A stretch of 64,000 nucleotides of DNA from Schmidtea polychroa (taxonomy: Eukaryota): the NCBI GenBank assembly GCA_044892525.1, contig CM097885.1:209498001-209562000 (forward strand). The letters are read 5' to 3'. Below, piece by piece: positions 21,691-61,518 of this stretch. The position numbers were made by a program, and so were the translations under genes. Below the pieces are notes generated by a model. The model saw only the letters and a program-made list of their open reading frames with translations, was not told where the DNA came from and did not search any database. Numbering within the stretch: the stretch's first letter is position 1; each line of letters begins with the position of its first letter.

Positions 21691-21949
21691 AGAACACCAA
21701 AATCATCAATAAAATATATTGATAAATGAACTGGCTTTTACTAATAGTTTAAATTTTTCAATTCAATGAGATTACACAAAGTTAACACAATTTATGTTTC
21801 TGAGAGATAATCACTTTTTTCTGGTTCCATGCATCTCAAAATTATTGAAAATTAGTATTGTTGGGGTGCTGCTTGGTTGACTTTGATAAAAATTTCGATT
21901 CATGTCTAGAGGATGGTGGGTTCTTACACTAACATCTATCGCATTTCTG

Positions 21950-22128
21950 TCAACCTCAAGTAATACTCCAAATGATTGCTCTCACGACATGATACCCATG
22001 AATTGTTCCATGTTAGTACTGCATCATGTCGGCGAGACGTCAGAAAACAGGTAATCCTCTACCTTAGGACGACTCTTTCCTGATGACTCAACTTACTCTC
22101 ATCCGACGGCCGATAGAAGGTCTTACGT
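21950..22128 (-). ncRNA. Conserved structured RNA motif, copy 1 (predicted cis-element)
   Basis: Invariant CCTTCTATCGG (22110-22120, minus). Bulged hairpin CATGATGC-AGTA-CT-AAC-ATGGA-ACAA-TTCAT-GG-GTATCATG has the same geometry as copies 2 and 3. Confidence 0.7.
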
Positions 22129-22341
22129 CTCATCTACTCCATGAGTTATCTCAAACCCTCATCGCTCTCTAAACTAACTGTCATTCGTTATTCGAAAGTA
22201 TCAAAATTAAGATTTAGTATAGCCAAGACAAACTCTTCACAAAAACAGAAAAACATCTATTGATCGGTTTACAACAAATTTTTCAAACTACACATAAAAT
22301 CAGACTATATTACTACGGTCAAATCAGGAATTCATGTTAAG

Positions 22342-22524
22342 TCAATTGCTTTTCGACTCAATGATAGCGATTTGGTTTTCTTTGGCGGCTTCCTCAAACA
22401 GAGCTTTTAAATCGAAAAATTCTGAAGCATTCTCCTCCCACGTTGCGCCAGCAGCTGAGATGACTCGACATTGCACACTGGCATTCGAGGTCGACGCGGG
22501 AGCGGATTCGATAGTCGCTTGCAT
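22342..22524 (-). CDS. Small ORF C (60 aa) immediately downstream of ORF B' in E1; unknown function
   Basis: ATG-initiated ORF in the GC-richer part of E1, 26 nt after the ORF B' stop. No recognisable domain. Confidence 0.3.
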   Translation of the reverse strand: MQATIESAPASTSNASVQCRVISAAGATWEENASEFFDLKALFEEAAKENQIAIIESKSN

Positions 22525-22550
22525 AGTTTTTGTTCCTTTTTGATCACGCG

Positions 22551-23093
22551 CTATTTCTGTTTTTTCTTGCGCTCTGCTCGTGATAGTTGTCGTCGCTTGG
22601 GCTTCAATGGTTGGATTGTAGTGCAGGATGCACTTGGTGTTTGGACAGATTTGGGCTTCACTTTACTGGTGCCCATGAAAACGACTTCATCGGTGCTTGG
22701 CGAGAGTACTGCCTCAATGCACTCTTGACAATATTTCTCTGAAGTTCGATGTTTATTAAGTGTCCGATCATAGTGGACAGGAAACACATTATCTTCCTCG
22801 GCTATTGGGATATTCACAATTTTCTGGGTCATCGATGCTTGAATGTACACTTTGTGCAGAGCTTCCGACTGCTCTGTGATGAGAAGTCTTTGCGAACGAC
22901 TTTCTGCGATTAAGCTCTCACGACAATGTTCGCTACGGAACAGCCTTTTCTGGGTCTCTTTCATTTGGGCAGGGTTGAACCAAGTACCATTTGAATGCCC
23001 CAATTTGAACTTGCAGACTCTTAATGGCCGCATTCTTGTCGCACAGGAGAAGCAAGGTATGATTTGACTATTTTTTTCAGGATTAGTATTCAT
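22551..23093 (-). CDS. Element-encoded ORF B' (180 aa), homologue of 53721-54205
   Basis: Shares KFKL..GTWFNPAQMK and KPKRRQLSRAERKK with ORF B ([28 protein letters not shown]). The ATG is directly preceded by a polypyrimidine tract and AG (TCTCTTATTTCCTTTATAG|ACCATG). Confidence 0.7.
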   Translation of the reverse strand: MNTNPEKNSQIIPCFSCATRMRPLRVCKFKLGHSNGTWFNPAQMKETQKRLFRSEHCRESLIAESRSQRLLITEQSEALHKVYIQASMTQKIVNIPIAEEDNVFPVHYDRTLNKHRTSEKYCQECIEAVLSPSTDEVVFMGTSKVKPKSVQTPSASCTTIQPLKPKRRQLSRAERKKKQK

Positions 23094-25576
23094 GGTCTAT
23101 AAAGGAAATAAGAGACAATAATTTAGAAGAAAAATTAGGTGTATTCGAAATAATCATGTGAAGGATTAGACCTTCCTTTTTCCAGTAATACATAGGAGTC
23201 TCCAACACTCATCGAAACTATTAATTCAGTAGTTCATTAACAGGACAGAGATGATCGATAGAAATAATAAAAAATATTTGGGAAAGGAAACCCATCCAGA
23301 CGATCTACTAGAATTACTTACTGATGTATTTAAAACCCGGAAGTGGATATAATTGTAATTAAGATAATTCATTTATTAAATTTATACTCACGGTTATCAT
23401 AGCAAAATTAATAGCAAAATTAATTTCAAAACCAGATCTAACTATTTTTACTTTATACTCGATTAACTACACTGATGGTACAAAATGTCATTAATAAATG
23501 AAGGAAATTGTTAACTTGATTGTATTATCGCTGACTTGTTTAAAACAAAAATTAAATCAAAAATTATAAATGCGAATTCCGGCTACAAGTAAACTCTCGT
23601 CACATTACGTGTTAAATCAAAACAACGGTTGTCCTTATCTTAGGACTTGCTATATGCTTATGAATATTCAGCTGATAATTTCATTTCTAGTTACCCAACA
23701 TTTTGAGAACAGATGTCAATTACTCAAGTGTTTCATGGATTAAATTTCACTAGGTTGTTGTCCATCTCAGTCGTGCTTTATCGGGTTAGTCTGCTGTCAC
23801 TGATATCTAAGCATCGGGTGGTTCCTAATCGGTGGAAATTTCGTGTGCTACTTACTGCTACCTCCCAATTCAATTTGGCTTGAGTGATTGCAAATTCAAC
23901 CGTTGATGTCTAGCAAATGTATTTGGGCCTCTGCTACTCACGGGTAGTATGATCGATGAGATTATATGTACTGGTACCGTTTCTCGTCTACGAGTCGCAA
24001 TGGTATGGGAAAAATTTTGACATTGTATATTTAAATCTGGAGATCCGTTTCGTGATCCTTGACAATCTTGCTATATCTTACTGAAGAACTGTACATTATT
24101 GTGATGGAAATGGAAAAAACAATTTTCCTTAAAGGCAGGTTTTGATAAAATCTGGCTTTGTTTAATAAATTTTATCATAAATTGTCTTGGTTATTTTTTG
24201 TATTTTGAATGAATTTTATGATATTTTGGTTAATAATAGAATTGCATTAAATAAGTTTAAATAACAAAATTAGAAATATAGAATTTCGTCATTGGGTATA
24301 TTGGCACGGTTCTGACACGGCACATTTTTATTATCCAATGATTAGTTAAAATTGTTTCAAAATATTTTTATGATTCGCGATGAATATTCAGATCGATTTC
24401 TCTATTAGCATAACTTCAACTTCGGCTAAAGATGTAGTCATTTACGTAGTTTTTCGTGGTTGGAATGAACTTTCGAAGAATGCATTTTTATGGAAGATGG
24501 TGTCAACGACGTACTCGAAAAATTTCGTATGAAAACTTTGCCGTAACCTCATTAAGACGAACTCCTAGACAAGATGGAACGTGGATACCTCAATCACTGT
24601 GTGGATATTCTGGCTGGCACCTCATACCTCTCTATTACGACAAAATTCGATTTGTACCATTTACTACTATCATTTAATTTTTATTCCGAAATTACCGAGG
24701 AATTTACTAAGACCTTCACTGACAGACCCGTGGAGAAGCCCCCACATTCCGGCCCGAAATCAACTGCGTGACTGAAGATGACCGCATACCCACAGGCTGA
24801 GCACCCCAAGGCCCTTCGCACGATAATATGTGGCATTTCAGCTCCGCGTTACTCGACAATCATCAAAAATTAATCAAGAAATTAAATCTTTATACCAAAA
24901 TTAATAATTCAAAAGTATTACTACCAAAATGTTCAATAAAACTAATGTTAAATTCGTATGATTACTTAAATAAGGAAAAAGGAAGAAGTAAAGTAAATTT
25001 TAAATTAATTTTTAATTTGTACTAAAGATTTACAGAATCATTAAAATAAAACAAAATTTATTAAATGGCTGCTCGAAATCCTTCAAATCGGAAAAAATTG
25101 AATTCTCGAAGAATAAATTTGATTAATGAATTGAGTGAATCTGTTATCTGGCTGATCGAGTGGTTATGAATATTTGCTTTACTCTATTACAGTTAGAATG
25201 AGAGGTAAATTTATCGTAAGAAGCGGCCCTTTTATATTGTTACGCTAAAATTTCTCAACCAATCAGAATTGACTGCATTGGATTTTTATGTTTGATTTTG
25301 AAAAATAAAATTGGTGAGTTCTTACTGGTTGTTTTTTTTTTGAATTTTAATTAAATATTCTATTTTTGTTGTTATAATTATAAATTTTTAATCGTTTTTC
25401 TTGTAATTGTTTAGTTCTTAATTTTTTGTTAATGATTTTTTTTCCTTTTTAGTTTTTAATTGTTAAAATGAATTTATTTAAATTTGTTTATTATTTAATC
25501 TAGTTTAATTTGTTGCTTTCTCGTTTAAGTTACTTCTACGATAATTTTACCGCTTCTTTCTTTTAAAAAAAATTTC

Positions 25577-25684
25577 TAAAACAGTAACAAAAAGAAATAA
25601 AATTGGATTTTTTAACTGAGATAGCTTCTTTTTAAAACAGTAATAAAAAGAAATAAAATTGGATTTTTTAACTGAGATAACTTC
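25577..25684. repeat. Tandem duplication (~56-bp unit x2) inside E1
   Basis: AAAACAGTAA(C/T)AAAAAGAAATAAAATTGGATTTTT(T)AACTGAGATA(G/A)CTTC occurs twice in tandem. Confidence 0.85.
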
Positions 25685-25796
25685 TAGATTTTCAGCCCAA
25701 CAGTATCTTTCAACTCAAACTTTGATTTTGTAGACAGAGCGTTGATATTTTACTATTTGTTGGTTTTCTATAATAAATTTGTACAATTTCTCATTA

Positions 25797-26139: not shown

Positions 26140-26574
26140 TGTTGGCGGGCCGCAGGGGAAACAGGGCTGGTTTAGATGACTATAATGTTGCGTTGTTTTT
26201 TATGTGACGTGCACAATCAAGGTTGAATTAGATGATTTTAATGTTAAACTGTTCTTATGCAGAGTGTAATGGTGAATTTCGTTTGTTGGAGTAGCCTTGA
26301 ATTGAGAAAGAAAATAGATCCGGGAGTACAATCAAAAAAGAGAGGAACCAGGAAAATCGGACACAGACCTTCTATCGGCAGTCATTGAACCCAAGGAAGT
26401 ACTGGACAATTATAGTATACAGAGTATGCTCACGTTTTGCTAGTACTACGACCCTTGATACATTACCAACGTTGATCACTCAACGGGTATCAAGTGGTCA
26501 AATTTCAATTGTATTCTCGGTTACGCTAAAAATAGCACGACGAGGTAAATTGTTTGATTACATTTAACCCATCA
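26140..26574 (+). mobile_element. Short member (E4, 435 bp) of the giant LTR-like family retaining the 3' structured region
   Basis: 26340-26540 aligns with 54320-54511. It ends TAACCCATCA (E3 ends TAACCCACCA). A possible start TGTTGGC is at 26140, but no TSD is seen. Confidence 0.65.
26358..26539 (+). ncRNA. Conserved structured RNA motif, copy 2
   Basis: CCTTCTATCGG at 26368-26378. Stem GTACTGG/CTAGTAC encloses hairpin AGTATAC/GTATGCT. Bulged hairpin CTTGATAC-ATTA-CC-AAC-GTTGA-TCAC-TCAAC-GG-GTATCAAG. Confidence 0.75.
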
Positions 26575-43400: not shown

Positions 43401-46400
43401 AAATTAATGTGACATTCGTTTTTTGTCTACGACAAATGCGATAATGATTTCTTTTGGCAACAACAGTTGGAAAATTCATGCCACAGACTTGACATTGTCT
43501 CTTTTCCAAATCCACAATGGAGATTGATGGACAATATACAGATCAAATGGGTATGGCTGTCTCAGTTTGGTTTGATTCGTAACATCCGGGTGAATATCTT
43601 GAAGAAGAAGAAGAACTGACAGATGGCAAAAATGACGACCTGCTGGTATCGGATCCTTCGGAGGCAATGCATTAATCCCAAATTCAGTGTGCTCAAAAAC
43701 ACGAGAATATGGTAAAAACCTGTTTGGTAAGATTTTTCGAAATTGAGGATAGCGAAATGGTTTGCAGCAAGATACATTTGTACACTTGACCGCTTGAAAC
43801 ATGTACTTTGAACTCATTATGTGCTCCGACCGCCACAGTAGGTTTGCAACTTCTTCTCTGGAAACTCGCAGTGTTTCATTGCCTTCTGGTATTGGAATAG
43901 CCTCCGCATACACTGCATTTTTGTCGATGACTGTTTTACTCCATATAGATGCTAAGACATTCATGGAGTTAAAGAAATTTCTTTTTTACAATTCTTTGTC
44001 GATTATCTTTCCACTTGCACCAATATGTGAACCAAAATGTTCGTGATCAAGAACCAACCCACAAATGTCATGGGATAGAGGAGCCATTCTACGTTCACAG
44101 GGATTATATGCACTGTAGCCTCTTGAAGTAATAAAAACTATGTACATGTCAAGATCATATTCCAGAAAAAAACATTAATCGCCTCTTCAATAACTTTCGG
44201 ATACCGTGCATTCTCGTCTGGTCCTCCATCTGACCGTGACACCCAAAATGGTTTAACATTTCCGGATCTCAAACCGTTCATCATCAATTATGTGGCGTAT
44301 GTCCGTGCTATGACTGTAGGCATTTGATGTATCATGCTTTTCTGAACGGATTGCTATATAAGTTGGCCCAGTGTTCGATATCCCGGTTGCCTTGTCGCCA
44401 ATAATGTCATCGTTGATAGTTAGGAAGGCGTACACTGAAGGTATCAATTTATGTTTCTCGGCTACCACCATCGTGATCTGGCAATTTTACTCGGTACTCT
44501 GTACTCATCATAACTGGCTGCTCTTTACTTGCTGCTGCAATTCCAAGAGCTATTCTAGCTTTATCGTCTGGCGAAAATAGCATCGTGTTTTGTGGACCAT
44601 TAAGTGTGCATAGTTCCATAACGAGCCTGATAGCATCCAAACCAAACTGGACATCTTCATTTTTCTTCCGAGCACTGAATTGGGCTTTGAAAAGTTTCAC
44701 CGGAACCGTTTGTACATGTCTTTTGCCTTCATTTGTATTCCAGCGACGTGATATCAGACGTCTGTATACAGCAGTTCTTTCAATACTGTAACCTTTTTCA
44801 TTGAGCATTAGTGTCAGATCATCTAAAGTTTTCGGACATTGCAATAATTGAGATCGACATCCAGGATCAGCGACAGCTTCATTGGAACAAACGAGTTCCC
44901 AAATCACATTGAGAAGATCTGGATATTTCTGCTCCTTTCTGGGACGCCCAGGTTTTTCAAGTAATGTTTCACCTGCAGCTGCGGATAATTTTTGGTATTT
45001 TTCTTTTTTTTTCAAGCGAGATTTCTGTGCTCGAGAACGGTTAAGTCGAAGAGTTTGAATAGCTTGTTGGATTTTCTTTTTGCTAGTCTCCAAGTTCTTC
45101 AATTCCTTTCCTACAGCTTCTGAATCACCTAAACCTTTCTGTTGCTTTAATACAAGGAATGATATGTTGGGATTTACTTCATCCAAACGTTTTTGTTCTC
45201 GTATTTCTGCTGGTGTATGACGTTTTATATCTTCCAACACATTCTGCTTTTCAACCTCGTTTCTACTCGATTCACTAGTGATGATTTTCGATTCGTCGAC
45301 AACTGAAGTATGACTGATTGTTTTGTCCATAACTGTCGCAATAACAGTTCACCAACAGATGATTCAACAGACACAGATAGAACCTCCTGCAATAATGTTT
45401 TCTTTGCTGGAATGTTTGTCCAATAACTCAGATTCTTTGCTTTTCGTTTTGCTACAACCATTCTTAAATCGTTCAGTTTCGTTTGGTTCTGATTTAATTC
45501 ATTCCATAAAGCCTGCGCTTCTGTCAGCTGATCGTGCTTTGATATGTCCGGATGTGCAAGAGCATACGTATTCACTAGATCTTGGTATAGATCTGGCATT
45601 TTGTTAACTTTACTTTTCTTGAACATGTCTATAGTCATCCGATATTAAAAAGTTTTCTTTAACATTCTAATTTAATGATTTATTTATATTAAAATATAAA
45701 CTAATAAATACAACTAGCGTGACGTCACGTTCAGCTCAACTCACCCACCCACCCACGTCACGTTTCGTCACTTTTGAAGGAACCCACCCACCCACCTTCA
45801 AGTGTGACGTAATTATGCAATGACCCCATATACAATGTATTTTTCATTTTCATAATGAAACTAAACTTTTAAATGTGGTTGACTTTTATATGCGGCCCGC
45901 CTGCTTTCTAGAAATTAACCATGTGGCACAGATGCTGCAAAAGGTTAAACCCTCACGATCTAGATAAAATAGTTTCAAGTTTAAAATTTTTCTTTTCTAA
46001 ATACAGAGTAACACAAATAAAATTTAATACAAAAAATCTTTCATTACTAAGCTTTGCCTGTTTTATTCTGCAAAGCATATATTTATATCCGGGAAAATCG
46101 TTGTATACTCGAGTTTTAACTGTTATTCTATTCAATCTAGATTTTTCCTAGATACTCGTTGATACAAAGAACATTAAGTATTTCACAGCTCTCGCATTAA
46201 TCTCTGGAAATTTATTTATAATTTGAAGTCAAAAATGATGGCAATTTTTTTTACTTGCAATTGAGAAGTATCGCATAATTCTTCAAAAGGATTTTGAATT
46301 CATATATTTCGGATAGGTTTAGGATATTGTTGTAGCCTGTCCCAGAAATATGGAATATTTTGACAACTTCGCAGAATCCAGTTTAAGGAAGTGTATACTA

Positions 46401-49400
46401 AAAGCCCGCATTATTTTATAAAAATATTAAAACAATTTCCCACATTTAAAGATTCTTAAATTGGAATTTTTCAGATGTTTTGAAAAAAAATCCAATAAAT
46501 TGTTTTTGAATTTTTACTCAAACAAAAGTTTGATTGCACGCGAGTGGATTTGATGATATTTTACATCGATTTTAGGCCGGGGTTCTAATACATGGATTAG
46601 CCCCTTAGGTTGTGCCATGTATACATGTTTAATTCCGATACGTATTCGTTCCAATCTCGGAAATTCAATGAGTCTCATTCAGCACATAATGGCTGTGAGT
46701 ATTATCGAGGCTATAAATTTTCTCTGTTGGTTTGAAGTGAGTAAAAATTCAACTTTTATACCTTTAATTTCAGATAAGTAATTAAAATACCGAACCATTA
46801 AACTTCAATTTTTTTCCATTGAATAATTTTACACCACATAAATAATAATATAAAAACTAAAAGAATTAAATGCGAGAATAATAATCACCACTGTCTGTTT
46901 AGTAGCCACCTTCTCCTGGCGATAATATATAATACGAAATATTTTAAATTTCGCGAATTTTTTTTTAAGTGCAATATTGATTTTGAGTTCAAAGTGCAAT
47001 TTTGACTATAGTCAGATGCTCTTTTTATTTTTGACTTTAGTCAGGGAACTTTTAGAGAGGGTGCTCTCTTTTCACACTCTAAAAAAGAGATAATATTAAT
47101 TTTTGGGTGTAAAGAAATGTAAAAAATGCAAAAAGTGCAATTTTTGTGTGTTTTGATGGTTTGAAATTTTTCAAAAATTGATTTTGTAAAAATATATAGA
47201 TTTTGGAAGAGAACATTCTTTTGACGACAACTTTTACGAAACTCTGAGGAATCTGTAGACAAGGATTTAAAGTTTTTGGACGAGAAAAATTTTTTCAAAA
47301 TATATAGAAATTAAAGACTTTCAAATTTTTTGACCAAATAATTTTTAAATTTTCAGTATAAGATTGTCAAATTTATGAAAAACAAAATTTTTTGAGTCAT
47401 CTTTTAGTCGTGCTATATTGCCAAGGTTTCAGAGAAATTTTAATTTTTTATGTATAGTATGTTCTATAAGGCTAAAAATATTAAAACTTCAAGATACCAT
47501 TAAAAATCAAAATTTCATTATAGTGAATATATTTTTTAATTGACTGTATAAGTTGGCGAATCCACAGAAAACTCATCGTGACTCGTAGGTTGGGAACCGG
47601 TGCTTTACACTTTTAATTTGAATGAATGTTGTATTCGATCAGTGGTTCACAATCCACGGACCGCGGCTCAAAGGTGGGCTTTGACAAAGGATCTGGTGGG
47701 CCGCGATGAAGTCTAGAAAAAGTACAAAAAGTAGAAGAAAATAAAAACTAAATCGGCGTTTACCTCAAATTGAAAGCAGCGGACTATACGGATGCACGTT
47801 GCAGAATTGTAGATTTCTAGTTTATCTATTCTACTCTATCTATTCTAGTAGCACAGTTTTAACAGTGAGTCAGTGTACCGGCTCGGTGAGTGTTACCCGC
47901 GACGACGTCAGCAAACGCATATTGCATTTTAAGCACTGTTTATTTATGTTTATTTGTATATAAACTATAAAAGGATAATAGTTTACATTTCACCGGCAGT
48001 TTGCGCACCTTTTCGGAGATATTTTTATTGTTTTGAGTAAAGTTAGAGTCGTTAGAATTATAGAAAAAATTAAAACGGTAAAACGAAAGAGGTGATGATC
48101 AAGATAACATTTCAATTGATATCTGTAAGAAAACCAAATATACTCGAAAATATTATGTGGAAATTATAAAATACAGTTTCGTACCATCAGAAAATGACGA
48201 AATAGGTGTTAAAGTATCGTACTTGATTGCCCTGAGAATTGCAAAATTAAAGGAGCCTCACACTATTGGAGAAGATCTTATCATGTTAACTGCTATAAAG
48301 ATTTGCGACATATTTTTTGGCTCGAAATACGCTATAAAATTGAAAAGCATTCCAATCTCGAATGACACTGTCAGCAGGAGAATATCTGAAATGTCAGATG
48401 ATATTCTAACGCAATTAACTGAGCGATTACAGTCTACTAAATTTACAATTCAATTAGATGAGACAGGTGATATCGCTGGCGAATCACAGCCACTTGCTCA
48501 TGTTCGATATTGTTGGCAAAATGTTGTGGAAAAATAATTTCTGTTTTACAAGTCATTGCCAGCTAGAACAACGGCGGATGAAATATTTTGAGTTATAAAC
48601 GAAATTTTTACAACTTATGGACTGCTGCAGTGGATGAACTGCGTCGGGGTTTGCATCGACGGCGCTGCAACAATGACAGGTCACAAAAGTGGTGTTGTAA
48701 CCCGCATAAAACAAGTGTCACCTGATGTCGTATACACTCATTGCATGATAGATCGTGAAGCATTGGCTTCGAAAAATTTGAATGAAACTCTGGGGTCTGC
48801 ACTCGATGACTATGTACGTATTGTAAACTTCATTTAAACTAGAACAGTGAATAGTCGACTATTTGCTCAACTTTGTATTGAGGCATATTCAGAACACAAA
48901 CATCTCCTATTGCACTGAGCTATTCGTTGGCTCTCCAGAGGGAAAATTCTTGTGTTGGGCTAGAACTGAATTCTAGACCCAAAATACACATTGTGGCTGA
49001 AATGTGTAGGTACACAGCAAGTAAAAAAGCACCAAGTATAATTAAATATTAAAACCTACACCAAATAAACAATGGTAATTAAACAGAGAAAACAACAAGA
49101 ATAATAAACACACAAATTAAATAAAATTATACAAAAGCAAGAAGTTATGCAAAATCTAACTCAAAAATAACCAAATAGACATAGAATTACCAAAAGCAAA
49201 CTCGAATAACTTAAAAGATGGTAAAAACAGTAAAAAATTCCAGAAAAACCCAGAACATTCCATTAAAATGGCGATGACCATCACAAAAGCCATAAAAGTT
49301 AGAGAAAATAAATAAATTAGTATTAAAAATAATAAATCTTAAAAAGAAATTCATAAAACACCAGTTGGAATAAAAATTAAATTAAAAGTAAAATAGAATG

Positions 49401-52400
49401 TTCTGGAACCGTTCCAAATCCATCATGGACGTCAAATTAACGAAAAATAATTAAAAAATAAAATTTTAAAAATAAAAACAAAAATTATGGCATAAAAATT
49501 GCCATTAAAAATATCGAAATTACAAAATAGAAAATTCTGGAATAAAAAGAATTCGAGTTTGTTTTAATGCATCAATACATACACGTGTACAAAATAGGTA
49601 TATATACTGACACGTTTCAGTCACAAATCATCACTTTTTGCCAATAAATTTTTGTTCAAAGAAAATTTTTGTCCAGGAAACTAGCAGTAAGTAGTTTTCC
49701 TTTTTGGTATTTATTATTTTTCATTAATATTAGTATTTTTATGTTTTAAATGTAAAATTATTTTAATGAATTTAATTAATCTTAACTTTTCATCTAACTT
49801 AGTTTTACCTTTTTGACTAATCAGCGACGTCTTAGTGCGTCGCTGTTTAGTCCTGCATTTAACATTAATTTTAAATGACAATTCACAGGCAGACAAGCAA
49901 TATATTTTATATAAAATTTTTTTTGTTTTGTCATCGGAGGTCGGCCACTTCATGGTTCTACTATGGAGTTGTGTCGATAAAACCCCTCCGCTATGGCTCC
50001 ATATATTTATTTATCGGTCGACAGTGATGTTTCGACCCAACATTACAATAGGGCTTGTCGTAGCGGTCACAGTGGGGCCGTGTAAGCAAGCATTCTTCCC
50101 GAGTTCCAATGCAGCACATATTTAAAATCAACATTAAAAATCTCATACATTACTTCACACTAAGGTCATAATTGAGTAGATCTCAGACCCAAATTAAACA
50201 CAGCAATTACAATTCAGTTAATGTAGTCGGTTAAGACCTCTCCACTTATGCGTCTGTCGAACATCGTTAGTAAATAAAATTTTTTTTAAAAAAAAAAATG
50301 TGAGGATTTTTCTCGGATCTGATTATGATGATAGCATCTCGAAGTTCGACAAGCGTAAAGGATGGAATAGATTCAATTAAGTATAAAACCCCCAACGAGT
50401 AGTATATATCCTTATCTCAGGATTAAAAGGTAGTATTGCCAATACCCAAATCAATCAGGAGTTAGGGTTATATTATAACTTCTTTTATTTTTCATTTATA
50501 AATCAATATCAATGAAGCATTATTATTTTAGAAAATGTAATATCACCAATTATAAACTATTATCGATAAAACCTTTTCAATTTGTAAATAAAACTTTTTA
50601 TGTGGATGTCTATTCAACTATAAACTTATGTCTATTCAACTGTAAAGCTATATTAACAACTATAACATAGATATGCGTGATCCTAACTTACTATTCAATT
50701 CATCCCTCAATTAGGAATTACAATCGAGAAACTCGTATAAAATTGTAAATGATCTTATCGATAAAGGATAAATCTTACTTGAGTTTATATACTAGGTCTA
50801 AACTAAGAGTCTCCCGCAATCGTTTAACTATGAGTGTATACTTGTTAGCTTATATATAAAACATGGATTAAAGGTATAATCTGATCGTTAAACTACTAAA
50901 TATATATTGGTTAAATTATAAAAGGTGATTATAATTATGTATATAATATAAGTCAAAAATATGCTCTAATCATTAAACCATAAGATAAAGATTAGTTAAA
51001 TTATAAATTATGACTATAAACTGTATATAAAATCTAAATCAAAAATATACTAAACTATAAAGTACCTATTAGATAAAAATATAACTACAAATTATTTATA
51101 AAAAATGATATATATAAATTATAAAATAGAATTATAACTTGTATAGAAAGTATAAATTAAAAGTATATTCTGATCATGAATTCTAAATTATATCATAAAA
51201 GATAGTATATATATAGTTATGTATTAATTATATGAGTAGCTAAAATAGAATTATAACTGGTATAGCAAGTATAAATTAAAGGTATATTCTGATCATGAAT
51301 TCTAAATTATATCATAAAATATAGTATATATATAGTTATGTATTAATTATATGAGTAGGTTATTCCTAAAAACCCAAACTACAACTAATTATAGATAAAA
51401 TTTTGATTACCAGAAGATAAACTGTAATTAATTATATATAAACATTGAGCGTAAAATATAAAGTACAATTCATTATATATGAAACTTATCGGTGTATTAT
51501 TCCTAAATAGGTAAATTATGAATAAATTTTGGTTACAAAATATAAATTATAACTAATTATATATTTTGATTATGAAGTACAAAGTGTAAATAATTATGTG
51601 GATTATATAAATATATGGCTCTTAAAAATTTAAATTATAAACGGTGTAAATTATAAATCATGATAGTATATATATATATATATATATGTGTATATAAATT
51701 ATCTAGGTATTCCAAAAGATAGTTATAGATGAATATTAGTTACAGCAGTAAATGATTACACTCAATTTCCGAGCTTTAAAAAGCTCAATTATAGATAGTC
51801 GTATTGCGAACCATTATATACATATTACGAATGGTAAAGATCCCTGCAAAATGGTAATATAGCAATCCGAGATATAAATCTGGAAAATGACAAGTACCTA
51901 TAAGATGCGGTCAAAATTTGTTCTACCTCTGAATCAGGTATTATAATATGACATTCTAAATCACGGGTGTTAAGGTTTCAACACCCGACAATGTCTTAGC
52001 TATTTATACCTCTATTGACTATCAAAATGATTATGGGAGTAAAAATCAGTTGTTAAATTATTTCGCACACAAAGTAGAGATTGACCTACAATGTTCCAGT
52101 GGTGGCCTGTTTAAAAGTGACCTGAGACTCGGATCTTCCAAAAATCTTAGCATGATCGCTCCAGGAATAGGGTTTCTAGAAACCGGTGTCGTTCAAGCAT
52201 AACCTATAAAATCACATCAAATAGGTAATGACAAAGGATACCCTAAGCTCTTATAGAATCAATGGTGACGATACAACGTATGAGTGGAATATGGTCTATA
52301 AATTAATAGACAACTTACTAAATTCCCATAAAACAAAATTCCAAAAACGCCGACGAGAATTGAGGGCAGGTTAACGTTGAAAATCAAAGAAACTTTCCAT

Positions 52401-55400
52401 AGGAGACAGGTCGGAATCATGACCCACTTTCATGTCAAAACCTGAAAGCGCATATACCTGAATTGCTAAAGTTGTTATGAATATATTAGCAGTATGCACC
52501 CCTCGAACGACTTCACCAACGAAGGAGCATTGGAACCCAGTTCCACAATAAACCCGTTCGCCAGCGAAATCTTTCTCTAGGGCTAATTACATCAAAATAG
52601 CATAAGCTGAATCATAACAATCCAGCCTAAATATAATTGCAAATAGAATATATGCCACGATGTAAATAATTATGTAATAATGTTAATTCAATAAAACAAC
52701 CAGATTTCTGTTTTAATTTTTTCTAATAAAAGTTAACCAAACCAAAAATTCGACGATTTGGGAACAACCACGAGCAAAATATAAATTTTCGGGGTACAAT
52801 ATTTCTCTTTTTGGTTACTTACTGCACAGGTAATAATTCGTTAGGATGTTTTCTTCCGATGTTTCTAGGTTGAGGCTATAGGGTGATGATAAGTAACGAC
52901 TCCCCATTTTTGCTATAAATTTGTCATCTAATTCACGACAAGGCACACTATCATCAGTAGGGAGTAACTATTCGCTCGAATCACGGCTTTACGTCTTAGT
53001 AGAATGATAAAAAAGATGAAATTTCAAGAAGAAAATCAGCATTAACCATTTTTATTTAATCATAGAATGTCGCAAGCAAGTGGTCCCGACGAAGCGGAAT
53101 ATAGGCAAATGATAACGCGGCTCCGGACCCGGTACATCTGGTACCGGATCCACGATTGGAATCGGGGGTTGGACCTAGATAATTATGGTCCGGTCATTCG
53201 GAGTGGCCCAGAGCCCGATGCCCCGGCGTGGGTGAAGGTAGAGCCCACTAACAACGTGCTCCGGGAAGCCCGCGATCGAGCGGCCGATGAGGTAGTAGAG
53301 GCCCAAAAGCGGCTGAGGAGACTCGAGCTCCAACTCAAGGCCGAAACGTTGGGGATAGCTCTTGAAGAGCTGGAGGAGACCGATGCCCCTCCACGAAAAC
53401 GGGGGAGGCCCCGCAAGAACCCGGCCTAACTTATCGACAATCGCGGCCTGAATAAAACGATTTTTACTGATCTTATTTAGTGATATTTTAGTAACATAAC
53501 GAATTGTATTTCTCTTTTGTTTATCAAACATAATCTATCGTGTAGTAATGCAATAAATTATATTTTTTTTTATTTATACTTTGGGCTTTACAGCTAATGG
53601 GGCGTATTCATAATTGAGGTGACCCTTTTCTCATCACCCACTTATAAATTCCATGCATGTACTCTAACCAACTTTGCGCACCAGAAGGCGAATGAGGGGA
53701 TTTATTATTATTTTCTTCAGTGTACCAGTTATTGGAAAACCTACGAAAGGACCGCGAACAGGCCCAGCAACAATCCGAGGGTCTCCGAGGTCGGGTCGAA
53801 AAACTCAAGCTGAAGTATCGAGAACTCCAAGGTACCTGGTTCAGCCCAGCCGAGATGAAAAAACAGAAGACCCACATCTCGCAACTCCAGACCCAGGCAG
53901 AGCAAGACCAACTCGAGATTCGGGCGTTGAAACTACAAGTACGCTCTCTCGAAAGCAAATTGAACGAAAAACTCATACAAGACGCCCTCCAAGAGCAGAT
54001 CCGCCCTCTCCAGGTGGAGCTAGCCAGAATATACCCACCAGCCCCGACAGGCAAGCCGAAACGTAAACGGCTCGGGCGGAATACCCGCGACAAATTGAAA
54101 AGGGCCTGGCTGGCCGAGCAGGAGAAGTTGAAAGAGGCTGGGGCCAATCCACGTTCCCAAAAGACGTTCGAGAATGCGACCCTCATGAATAAACCAACTC
54201 TGTAAAACAGTAGTAATTTAATAAGTGATTCTGGTTGTGTAATAAATATATGATCGAACTTTGCGTTGACTTAAACCGAAAGGATTGGTAGAAAAGCGTG
54301 TGGGAAAACAATCTCGACGAGGGACCGAAACAAATCGGACACGTGCCTTCTATCGGCGTCCGTGAACCCATCGCGTACTCGACAATTATAGTGCCTCGAT
54401 GCGCTCACTTTTTGCGAGTACTCAACCCTTGGTACAGTACCAACGTTGATTGCTCAACGGGTACCAAGCGGAAAAACAATGTTGTATTCTGGGTTACGCT
54501 GGTAACAGCACTTAAACATTCAACCACCAGTAACCCACCACTTGAAAGAGTGTTTGAACTTCGTTTGGAATTGTTACAGTTTTTGGCTTTATTATAATTT
54601 TGTGATAAACCCTTTGAAATTGTTGAATCCAATTCTGCATTAGCACTTGAGTTATAATTTATTTGTGTTTGTTTAGTCTGGAAACGTTTCCAAGTTATTT
54701 GTCTCAGAGATATTCAAAGAGATCAATAAAAAGTGTAAAGTGTACACTATACACGAGTAACAATTGTAACAAAATTAATATTTAATAACACTTAAAAAAA
54801 AGGGTTTTCAACGAAAATAATATTTATATAAAAAATAGTAAACTAGTCATAGGATATTGAATTTTGGTAATATTTAATTTTATACTTTACCCAAATTTTT
54901 AGAAAGATTTATTAAAAATAAAATGGCCTAACGATGTCTATTGGAATCAACATGGAAAAATAGCTGGAATAATATCAAAAGCTGTTACACAAGATAATTA
55001 TTTTTATTGTTTTTTAGGTGGGTACCATATATAAATGTAATTGTAATAATGAATTATTAGGAGTTGGTATAAATGTGTCCAATAGTGAACCAACGGTTTG
55101 TATCCATGATATCATTAAGTCATCTAGTAAAGGCGAGGTTACCAATATAAATTACCCTTCAGTGGAAAAAGTTATTGCTCATGTTTTGACTAGATTCGAA
55201 AACAATATTGATCTAATTCAATCTACTGGAAATGAAATTGAGAATTTTAAAAGCAAATATTACAAACATTGGATGCACAAGTATATACATTGATAAAGTA
55301 AAAATTTCAAAACTATTCAATAGAGATCAGGTTGTTACGGTTAAAAATGGTGAAAATAGTGTAAAAGGATCAATAATCGGTATTGATGATTTTGGGTTTT

Positions 55401-61022: not shown

Positions 61023-61518
61023 CTGATTGTTTTGTCCATAACTGTCGGCAATAACAGTTCACCAGCAGATGATTCAACAGACACAGATGGAACCTCCTGC
61101 AATAATGTTTGTCCATTAATTCAGATTCTTTGCTGTTCGTTTTGCTACAACCATTCTTAACTCGTTCAGTTTCGTTTGACATGTAGATGGTTCTGATTTA
61201 ATTCATTCCATAAAGCCTGCGCCTCTGTCAGCTGATCGTGCTTCGATATGTCTGGATGTGCAAGAGCATACGTATTCACTAGATCTTGGTAAAGATCTGG
61301 CATTTTGTTAACTTTAATTTCCTTGAACATGTCTATAGTCATCCAATATTAAAAAGTTTTCTTTAATATTCTAATTTAATGATTTATTTATATTAAAACA
61401 TAAACTAATAAATACAACTAGCGTGACGTCACGCTCAGCTCAACTCACCCACCCACGTCACGTTTTGAAGGAACCCACCCACCAACCTTCAAGCGTGACG
61501 TAATTATACAATGACCCC
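61023..61518 (-). mobile_element. Partial second copy of the Zator element (5' end)
   Basis: Near-identical to 45316-45827, including the TIR, with small internal deletions. Confidence 0.9.

Follow-up and report, generated by a model that had tools for sequence, protein, structure and literature searches.

The planarian elements Burro and GYPSM1 have been described as giant gypsy-like LTR retrotransposons of more than 30 kb, with LTRs of several kilobases and one polyprotein of 4,700-4,800 aa that comprises Gag, CCHC knuckles, MATH, a fusion glycoprotein, PR, RT, RNase H, IN and ankyrin, together with accessory BIR and TRAF frames (PMC6431247). Giant LTR elements are abundant and active in planarians (PMC8532177), and one Burro element, Burro1, affects stem-cell survival, as cited in PMC13465017. 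The portion of the Burro/GYPSM1 description considered here mentions neither an RNA structure in the LTR nor a primer site nor a non-autonomous family (PMC6431247). Precedents for such a structure come from retroviruses and from Ty elements. In RSV, HIV-1 and MLV, a stem known as U5-IR is formed from the 3′ terminus of the LTR beside the primer site (PMC11181671; PMC3601003). On the 5′ side of the primer site, the primer activation signal (PAS), a single-stranded box with complementarity to the primer's T-arm, pairs with that arm, and the annealing of tRNA-Pro, the primer of MLV and HTLV-1, is driven by NC (PMC11181671). Ty1 and Ty3 also have a structured 5′ RNA, with a bipartite PBS, T- and D-arm boxes and, in Ty1, a 5′ pseudoknot bound by Gag (PMC4974528).

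The window analysed here, a stretch of 64,000 nucleotides from Schmidtea polychroa (contig CM097885.1, positions 209,498,001 to 209,562,000), contains three diverged copies of a predicted four-part RNA fold, which fills the last 195-260 nt of Burro-type LTRs directly before the primer site. To our knowledge, structure supported by covariation has rarely been reported for the leaders of animal Ty3/gypsy elements. The planarian fold has in common with the retroviral leaders a stem formed by the 3′ terminus of the LTR beside the primer site, a candidate box upstream of that site, predicted to be single-stranded and complementary to the primer T-arm, and a tRNA-Pro primer, but it adds three hairpins with invariant internal loops, its box lies 150-230 nt from the primer site and its gap between LTR and primer site is 7-8 nt (compare PMC11181671 and PMC3601003). 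Similarity to retroviral leaders in sequence or in Rfam is absent. With Ty1 and Ty3 it shares a structured 5′ RNA and possible extra contacts to the primer, whereas the planarian fold lies wholly inside the LTR, has no detected pseudoknot and precedes an ordinary 18-nt primer site (compare PMC4974528). A search of Rfam 15 returned no match at gathering in the window and none below E=5 over the fold; in the original prediction, too, no ribozyme or ncRNA consensus had been recognised. Among the papers found on Burro elements and on U5 structures of LTR retrotransposons, none announces the fold in its title or in the opening of its abstract, nor do the covered parts of PMC6431247, PMC8532177, PMC13465017 and PMC10886601 mention it. 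Structured LTR leaders are already known, and the Burro fold is an apparently undescribed variant of them with good comparative support.

The first copy closes a solo LTR (Table 1). Over 5.6 kb, this LTR shares 98.6% identity with the 3′ LTR of an element of 36.7 kb located elsewhere in the genome. The two LTRs of this element are 99.5% identical, and a sister element carries a polyprotein frame of 4,787 aa. Pfam recognised in the giant polyprotein a zinc knuckle, MATH, a fusion glycoprotein, protease, reverse transcriptase (RT), RNase H, integrase and ankyrin, and found TRAF and BIR frames 3′ of it. The elements measure 36.7 and 35.4 kb with LTRs of 5.6 and 4.9 kb, respectively, or about 30 kb with LTRs of 3.9-4.2 kb, and in size, LTRs and domain layout they match the published description of Burro/GYPSM1, that is, of Burro-type giant Ty3/gypsy elements. 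Two further candidates were dropped, a full-length element full of nested insertions and an element pair that turned out to be a segmental duplication. The other two copies of the fold in the window belong to other families. The LTR of copy 2 could be traced in its 5′ part only to about 26170. The terminal CA of copy 3 is at 21859 and not at 21914, a difference of 55 nt, because the solo LTR with the target-site duplication GTAT ends there.

Table 1. Coordinates, in the window, of the host LTRs and of the predicted parts of the fold
Feature	Position	Strand	Description
Solo LTR, 5,588 bp, TG...CA (copy 1)	48953..54540	+	Burro-type giant Ty3/gypsy; flanked by the 4-bp target-site duplication CTTG
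Open frame in the LTR, 169 aa between stops	53696..54205	+	GTWFSP motif, basic C-terminal patch
Two AATAAA hexamers, 158 and 105 nt before domain I	54188..54246	+	candidate poly(A) signal and/or TATA-like box
Domain I	54337..54361	+	short hairpin; near-invariant UCUA loop, closing CC:GG
Linker box TGAACCC, predicted unpaired	54363..54369	+	complementary to tRNA-Pro T-arm (gene nt 50-56); candidate primer-activation-like signal
Domain II	54375..54421	+	long irregular hairpin; near-invariant U-AG...CU-CAC internal loop, conserved U.G wobble
Domain III	54428..54468	+	8-bp lower stem; near-invariant ANNA-CC-AAC / GG interior; 3-5 bp upper stem, free loop
Domain IV, terminal stem	54490..54537	+	3′ arm is the integrase attachment end of the LTR
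Copy 2, 3′ end of an older LTR of another family	26358..26574	+	domains I-IV, partly decayed
Copy 3, solo LTR of a third family, 3,844 bp	21859..25702	-	target-site duplication GTAT
Copy 3, domains I-III	22128-21988	-	true LTR end 21859
Box complementary to tRNA-Pro D-arm nt 10-18	21904..21912	-	clade without T-arm box

All the helices quoted in the original prediction were found in the three copies of the window. In copy 1, the outer helix of domain II is formed by 54375-54381/54415-54421 and the inner one by 54390-54394/54401-54405, joined by the 8-nt and 9-nt spacers, correctly given; the helices of copy 2 extend over 26368-26494 (+) and those of copy 3 over 22120-21988 (-). The sequence CCTTCTATCGG of domain I, located at 54346-54356 in copy 1 and claimed to be invariant, is so in the three window copies but not across nine lineage representatives, where the loop reads CC-NUCUA-1 or 2 nt-GG and its last bases vary. 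The interior of domain III is near-invariant. The double bulge proposed for it is not fixed by covariation: applied to the alignment, RNAalifold picks an 8x1 internal loop, and the CC:GG pair inside the domain never covaries. Because of this missing covariation and of the preference of the alignment fold for one asymmetric loop, the two bulges are to be taken as a model only.

A fixed distance of 72-80 nt between domain III and the terminal CA was also proposed. In the window copies, 72, 80 and 129 nt separate domain III from the LTR end, the last value being that of copy 3, and across clusters the distance ranges from 67 to 130 nt. What is roughly fixed instead is the link of 17-25 nt between domain III and a terminal stem that had been overlooked, domain IV, in which the segment following this link pairs with the LTR terminus beside the primer site and whose loop absorbs the length differences between families. 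Folding of single sequences gave modest z-scores on the plus strand, from -2.8 to -0.3, and the minus strand scored better in one of eight pairs.

The fold is present in many copies and in elements that are otherwise very different. The exact pattern of domain III matched the genome 3,785 times, compared with a single match for the reversed control, and in 27 arbitrarily placed stretches of 10 kb there were six clear matches and a marginal one, which suggests, as a rough estimate from these stretches, a copy number of some ten thousand or more. When loci were chosen solely by an LTR end followed by a tRNA-Pro primer site (the first 30 of 595 such matches), the fold lay upstream in all 30 of them. 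These loci include two young autonomous families of about 30 kb, whose RT and Gag are 89% and 45% identical, respectively, to those of the family of the window. A young and abundant non-autonomous family of 16.5 kb, also represented among these loci and with LTRs of 1.65 kb that are 99.9% identical to each other, retains both the fold and the primer site. None of 15 frames from an autonomous copy had a tblastn match in this family, which has little in common with the autonomous elements beyond the fold and the primer site. About one third of the first 100 exact pattern matches belong to the 16.5-kb family (L209-L215, G000:C1:178264244-178280705). Outside the genome, scanning metagenome contigs with the pattern returned nothing, and scanning viral contigs returned one match, judged to be a chance one, that had no domains II-III.

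The original prediction held that the stem sequences change while pairing is kept. Covariation was analysed on an alignment made by sequence alone. From 154 distinct near-full matches, rows with large indels (9) and rows sharing at least 95% identity with one already retained (37) were removed, leaving 108 rows in 25 clusters; an automatic alignment of 20 sequences was left out, as domain II was misregistered between families. An all-pairs G-test against a tree-simulated null, whose power is low because there are few independent lineages, identified 2 of 10,296 pairs at E<0.05, both of them in the inner helix of domain II, and no tertiary pair or covarying pseudoknot. A test at the level of helices was performed with 44 rows from lineages outside the families on which the prediction had been based. 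Among the 24 predicted pairs, 0.89 of the doubly changed cells still pair, compared with 0.42±0.09 under the null and with none of 500 simulations reaching that value. A separate figure from the same test, the overall fraction of paired cells, is less trustworthy because the site rates of invariant columns are overestimated. The pairing of changing stems thus goes beyond chance in lineages that had not been seen before. In domain I, by contrast, the pairs are conserved without covarying (0.40 versus 0.43).

Helix arms were also combined either with partners from their own cluster or with those of other clusters, a comparison whose p values are optimistic because the clusters are related. Own arms pair better in the outer and inner helices of domain II and in the lower and upper stems of domain III (p<0.0001 each), and also in domain IV, with p<0.0001 over 17 clusters and p=0.0008 over 7 merged lineages. 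The outer helix of domain I did not reach significance (p=0.13). Within domain III, 86.3% of 240 cells are paired in 16 copies and compensatory changes occur in 11 of the 15 pairs, compared with 28-44% of cells paired in slid registers used as a control. In nine hand-picked lineage representatives, 143 of 153 cells are paired and the loops are unchanged. G.U cells outnumber A.C cells (253 versus 81), and therefore the plus strand is the folded strand. The pairing, this strand bias and the 30 loci together support the conclusion that selection maintains the fold as a plus-strand RNA that acts in cis at the 3′ end of the LTR, as had been proposed.

Full copies of the elements carry an 18-nt site, located 7-8 nt past the LTR, that is complementary to the 3′ end of the host tRNA-Pro(UGG). 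The gap of 7-8 nt, instead of about 2, is seen in full copies such as L005 and L243, and just past the 18th base of the site the letters vary, a pattern that would fit occasional read-through by RT of the modified base 58 of the tRNA. The genes of this primer form tandem arrays of 475-bp units (L229, G000:C1:130.90-130.95 Mb), and the tRNA-Pro gene pattern has 1,556 matches genome-wide. Upstream, the linker box is wobble-compatible with the T-arm in 18 of 25 clusters and 66 of 108 rows, with a complementarity of 7-8 nt and changes that are mostly of the wobble type; the other seven clusters have no T-arm box. In a clade without it, a box of 9-11 nt complementary to the D-arm is found, which is present in all 27 copies of its cluster when up to 2 mismatches are allowed and reaches an 11-nt match in a related young family. 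With shuffled tRNAs, a 6-nt T-arm box arises in 13% of cases, the 7-nt box in 2.5% and the D-arm box in 1.5%, and complementarity to any of six conserved 6-mers arises in 22%. The longest tRNA-complementary run in U5 is not above that of shuffles (8.0 versus 7.7; 97/400), and no pairing with the primer is seen for the invariant loops of domains I-III. These numbers leave the linker and D-arm boxes no more than suggestive of extra contacts to the tRNA-Pro primer. A long-range interaction between the linker box and the stretch preceding the 3′ LTR was considered and rejected, given that the letters do not covary between families.

The best explanation, to which we assign a probability of about one half, is that the fold is a leader platform on which Gag, RT and the tRNA-Pro primer assemble for packaging and for the start of reverse transcription. 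The element's proteins and the primer would gather on the fold. Domain IV would play the part of the retroviral U5-IR stem; with the variable loop sealed off by it, the structural distance between domains I-III and the primer site would stay constant. The single-stranded box would pair with the T-arm of the primer, or with the D-arm in one clade, in the manner of a primer activation signal, and the invariant loops of domains I-III would be bound by element proteins supplied in trans. Since the fold is cis-acting, works at the RNA level and is kept where no protein is encoded, it is presumably needed for mobilisation in trans. The invariant loops are best read as protein contacts. A protein encoded in the LTR is only 24-36% identical between families, in comparison with 45% for Gag and 89% for RT, so the constancy of the loops fits a conserved partner such as RT or the tRNA, and RT would be a better partner than the LTR-borne protein. 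Among the roles initially offered for the fold, packaging and priming are probably the most likely ones. Dimerisation is unsupported, as a conserved self-complementary apical loop was not found in the fold. A point against the platform is that an AT-rich internal repeat, which the non-autonomous family also has in common with the autonomous ones, could be the packaging signal instead.

The assignment of the fold to U5 is one that we infer from its position. If it lay in R, another explanation would gain, namely that the basic protein whose frame lies just upstream in the LTR uses the fold as a response element of the TAR or RexRE kind, with a role in the elongation or nuclear export of the 30-kb unspliced RNA. 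With the TAR of HIV and the RexRE of HTLV, the planarian fold has in common that it is a multi-stem RNA inside the LTR, near a candidate gene for a small basic protein and a candidate poly(A) signal; it differs from them in that the binding of a regulator, the position in R and the function are putative. The RexRE of HTLV is located in the LTR, and both HTLV and BLV have a long R with a distant AAUAAA (PMC12789967). In all four autonomous LTR types examined, a frame with an Arg/Lys-rich patch terminates 140-290 nt short of domain I, and six of six young LTRs have AATAAA- or TATA-like hexamers at a distance of 75-180 nt on the 5′ side of this domain. In most families a CA followed by GU-rich sequence is found about 20 nt after domain III, and the fold might possibly bridge the distant AAUAAA to the cleavage site. 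Retention of the fold in non-autonomous copies fits this explanation equally well. Against it, the candidate protein diverges between families, as noted, while the loops are invariant; it has no Pfam family, and an Atlas search with a relative was blank; no stem enclosing domains I-III was seen; and one young family has no strict AATAAA near domain I, while in another its presence varies. We regard a TAR- or RexRE-like role as unlikely, though not negligible. We know of no RNA-protein pair of this type in Ty3/gypsy elements, and it is equally doubtful that a switch of the Tat/TAR or Rex/RexRE type evolved independently in them and is parasitised by the non-autonomous copies. A second frame borne by the LTR, of 120 aa, is located at 53067-53429 (+) between a TATA-like box and an AATAAA; it has no Pfam match and ends in RGRPR, which we take to be an AT-hook-like motif.

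Other, unlisted roles that involve host factors carry a small probability. One specific role of this kind, which is improbable, is that the GUAAG of domain I, by binding U1, adjusts how far the nearby poly(A) signal is read through, so that 3′-end choice or splicing would depend on host factors. A precedent exists in foamy viruses (PMC3694450), and GTAAG occupies the same place in 20 of 27 and 13 of 18 rows of two clusters and in most small clusters, but in the window's own two families no row has it (0 of 8 and 0 of 28), and GUAAG alone cannot tell the LTRs apart because both of them carry it. An intron running from GUAAG through CUCAC to CAG was rejected as well, since it is not conserved in all families (CAT replaces the downstream CAG in 15 of 18 rows of one and 16 of 28 rows of another) and since a search for intron-less copies gave 5 matches versus 4 in the control, none of them such a copy.

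That the fold is a self-cleaving ribozyme of an undescribed class, trimming the element RNA, is very unlikely. The many invariant unpaired nucleotides on three adjacent stems and the GNRA-type tetraloops seen in domain IV of two families would suit a ribozyme; the Rfam result and the lack of a covarying pseudoknot speak against one, the LTRs, primer site, integrase and target-site duplications of the elements are all of the ordinary kind, and cleavage at a point separating R from the primer site would presumably hinder strand transfer. In hepadnaviral epsilon, a hairpin has an internal bulge between two stems, and domain III of the planarian fold is alike. Highly improbable even when taken together are an IRES, despite the very long leader before gag, as 0.6-0.9 kb separate the fold from the first internal ORF and 2.9-3.9 kb separate it from gag, and as it is kept in the non-coding family, and an epsilon-like template for protein priming, for which the CCAAC interior of domain III, complementary to the first LTR bases, and the lack of an ordinary polypurine tract could be adduced, but whose likeness is superficial given the free apical loop, the tRNA-Pro primer site, the lack of a terminal-protein domain among the Pfam matches and of any Rfam match, and a G after AAC in several families whose LTR still begins with T.

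The thousands of copies, in about nine lineages, provide a model of the fold with invariant loops that can be probed directly, and the selection, priming or export of a 30-kb RNA becomes testable with it. The fold is likely to be the minimal cis signal of the largest known LTR elements, and it is also a sensitive marker for Burro LTRs, which nucleotide BLAST misses between families.

Several other conserved signals were observed in these elements. A GC-rich motif of about 130 nt (window 24703-24834, minus strand; L209:5136-5260) is located 300-600 nt past a CCAAT/TATA promoter in the LTRs of three families, the non-autonomous one included; it is missing from the window's own family and has no Rfam match. 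Before the 3′ LTR, full-length C2 and C1 copies (L038, L210, L273, L278) have no ordinary polypurine tract, and all families have at this place a short hairpin, a T-run and a GC-rich 11-mer 5-7 nt from the LTR. Short AT-rich repeats with GATA-like sites, common to autonomous and non-autonomous families, lie 400-900 nt before gag (L036:24-184; L210:5309-5458) and are candidates for an enhancer or a packaging signal. Between the primer site and gag, all autonomous families contain a small frame of about 105-125 aa (e.g. L272, L277) with an identity of 28-31%. Finally, an unrelated repeat of about 500 bp occurs twice in the window (45338-45827 and 61048-61518), 15.7 kb apart and with 95-97% identity.
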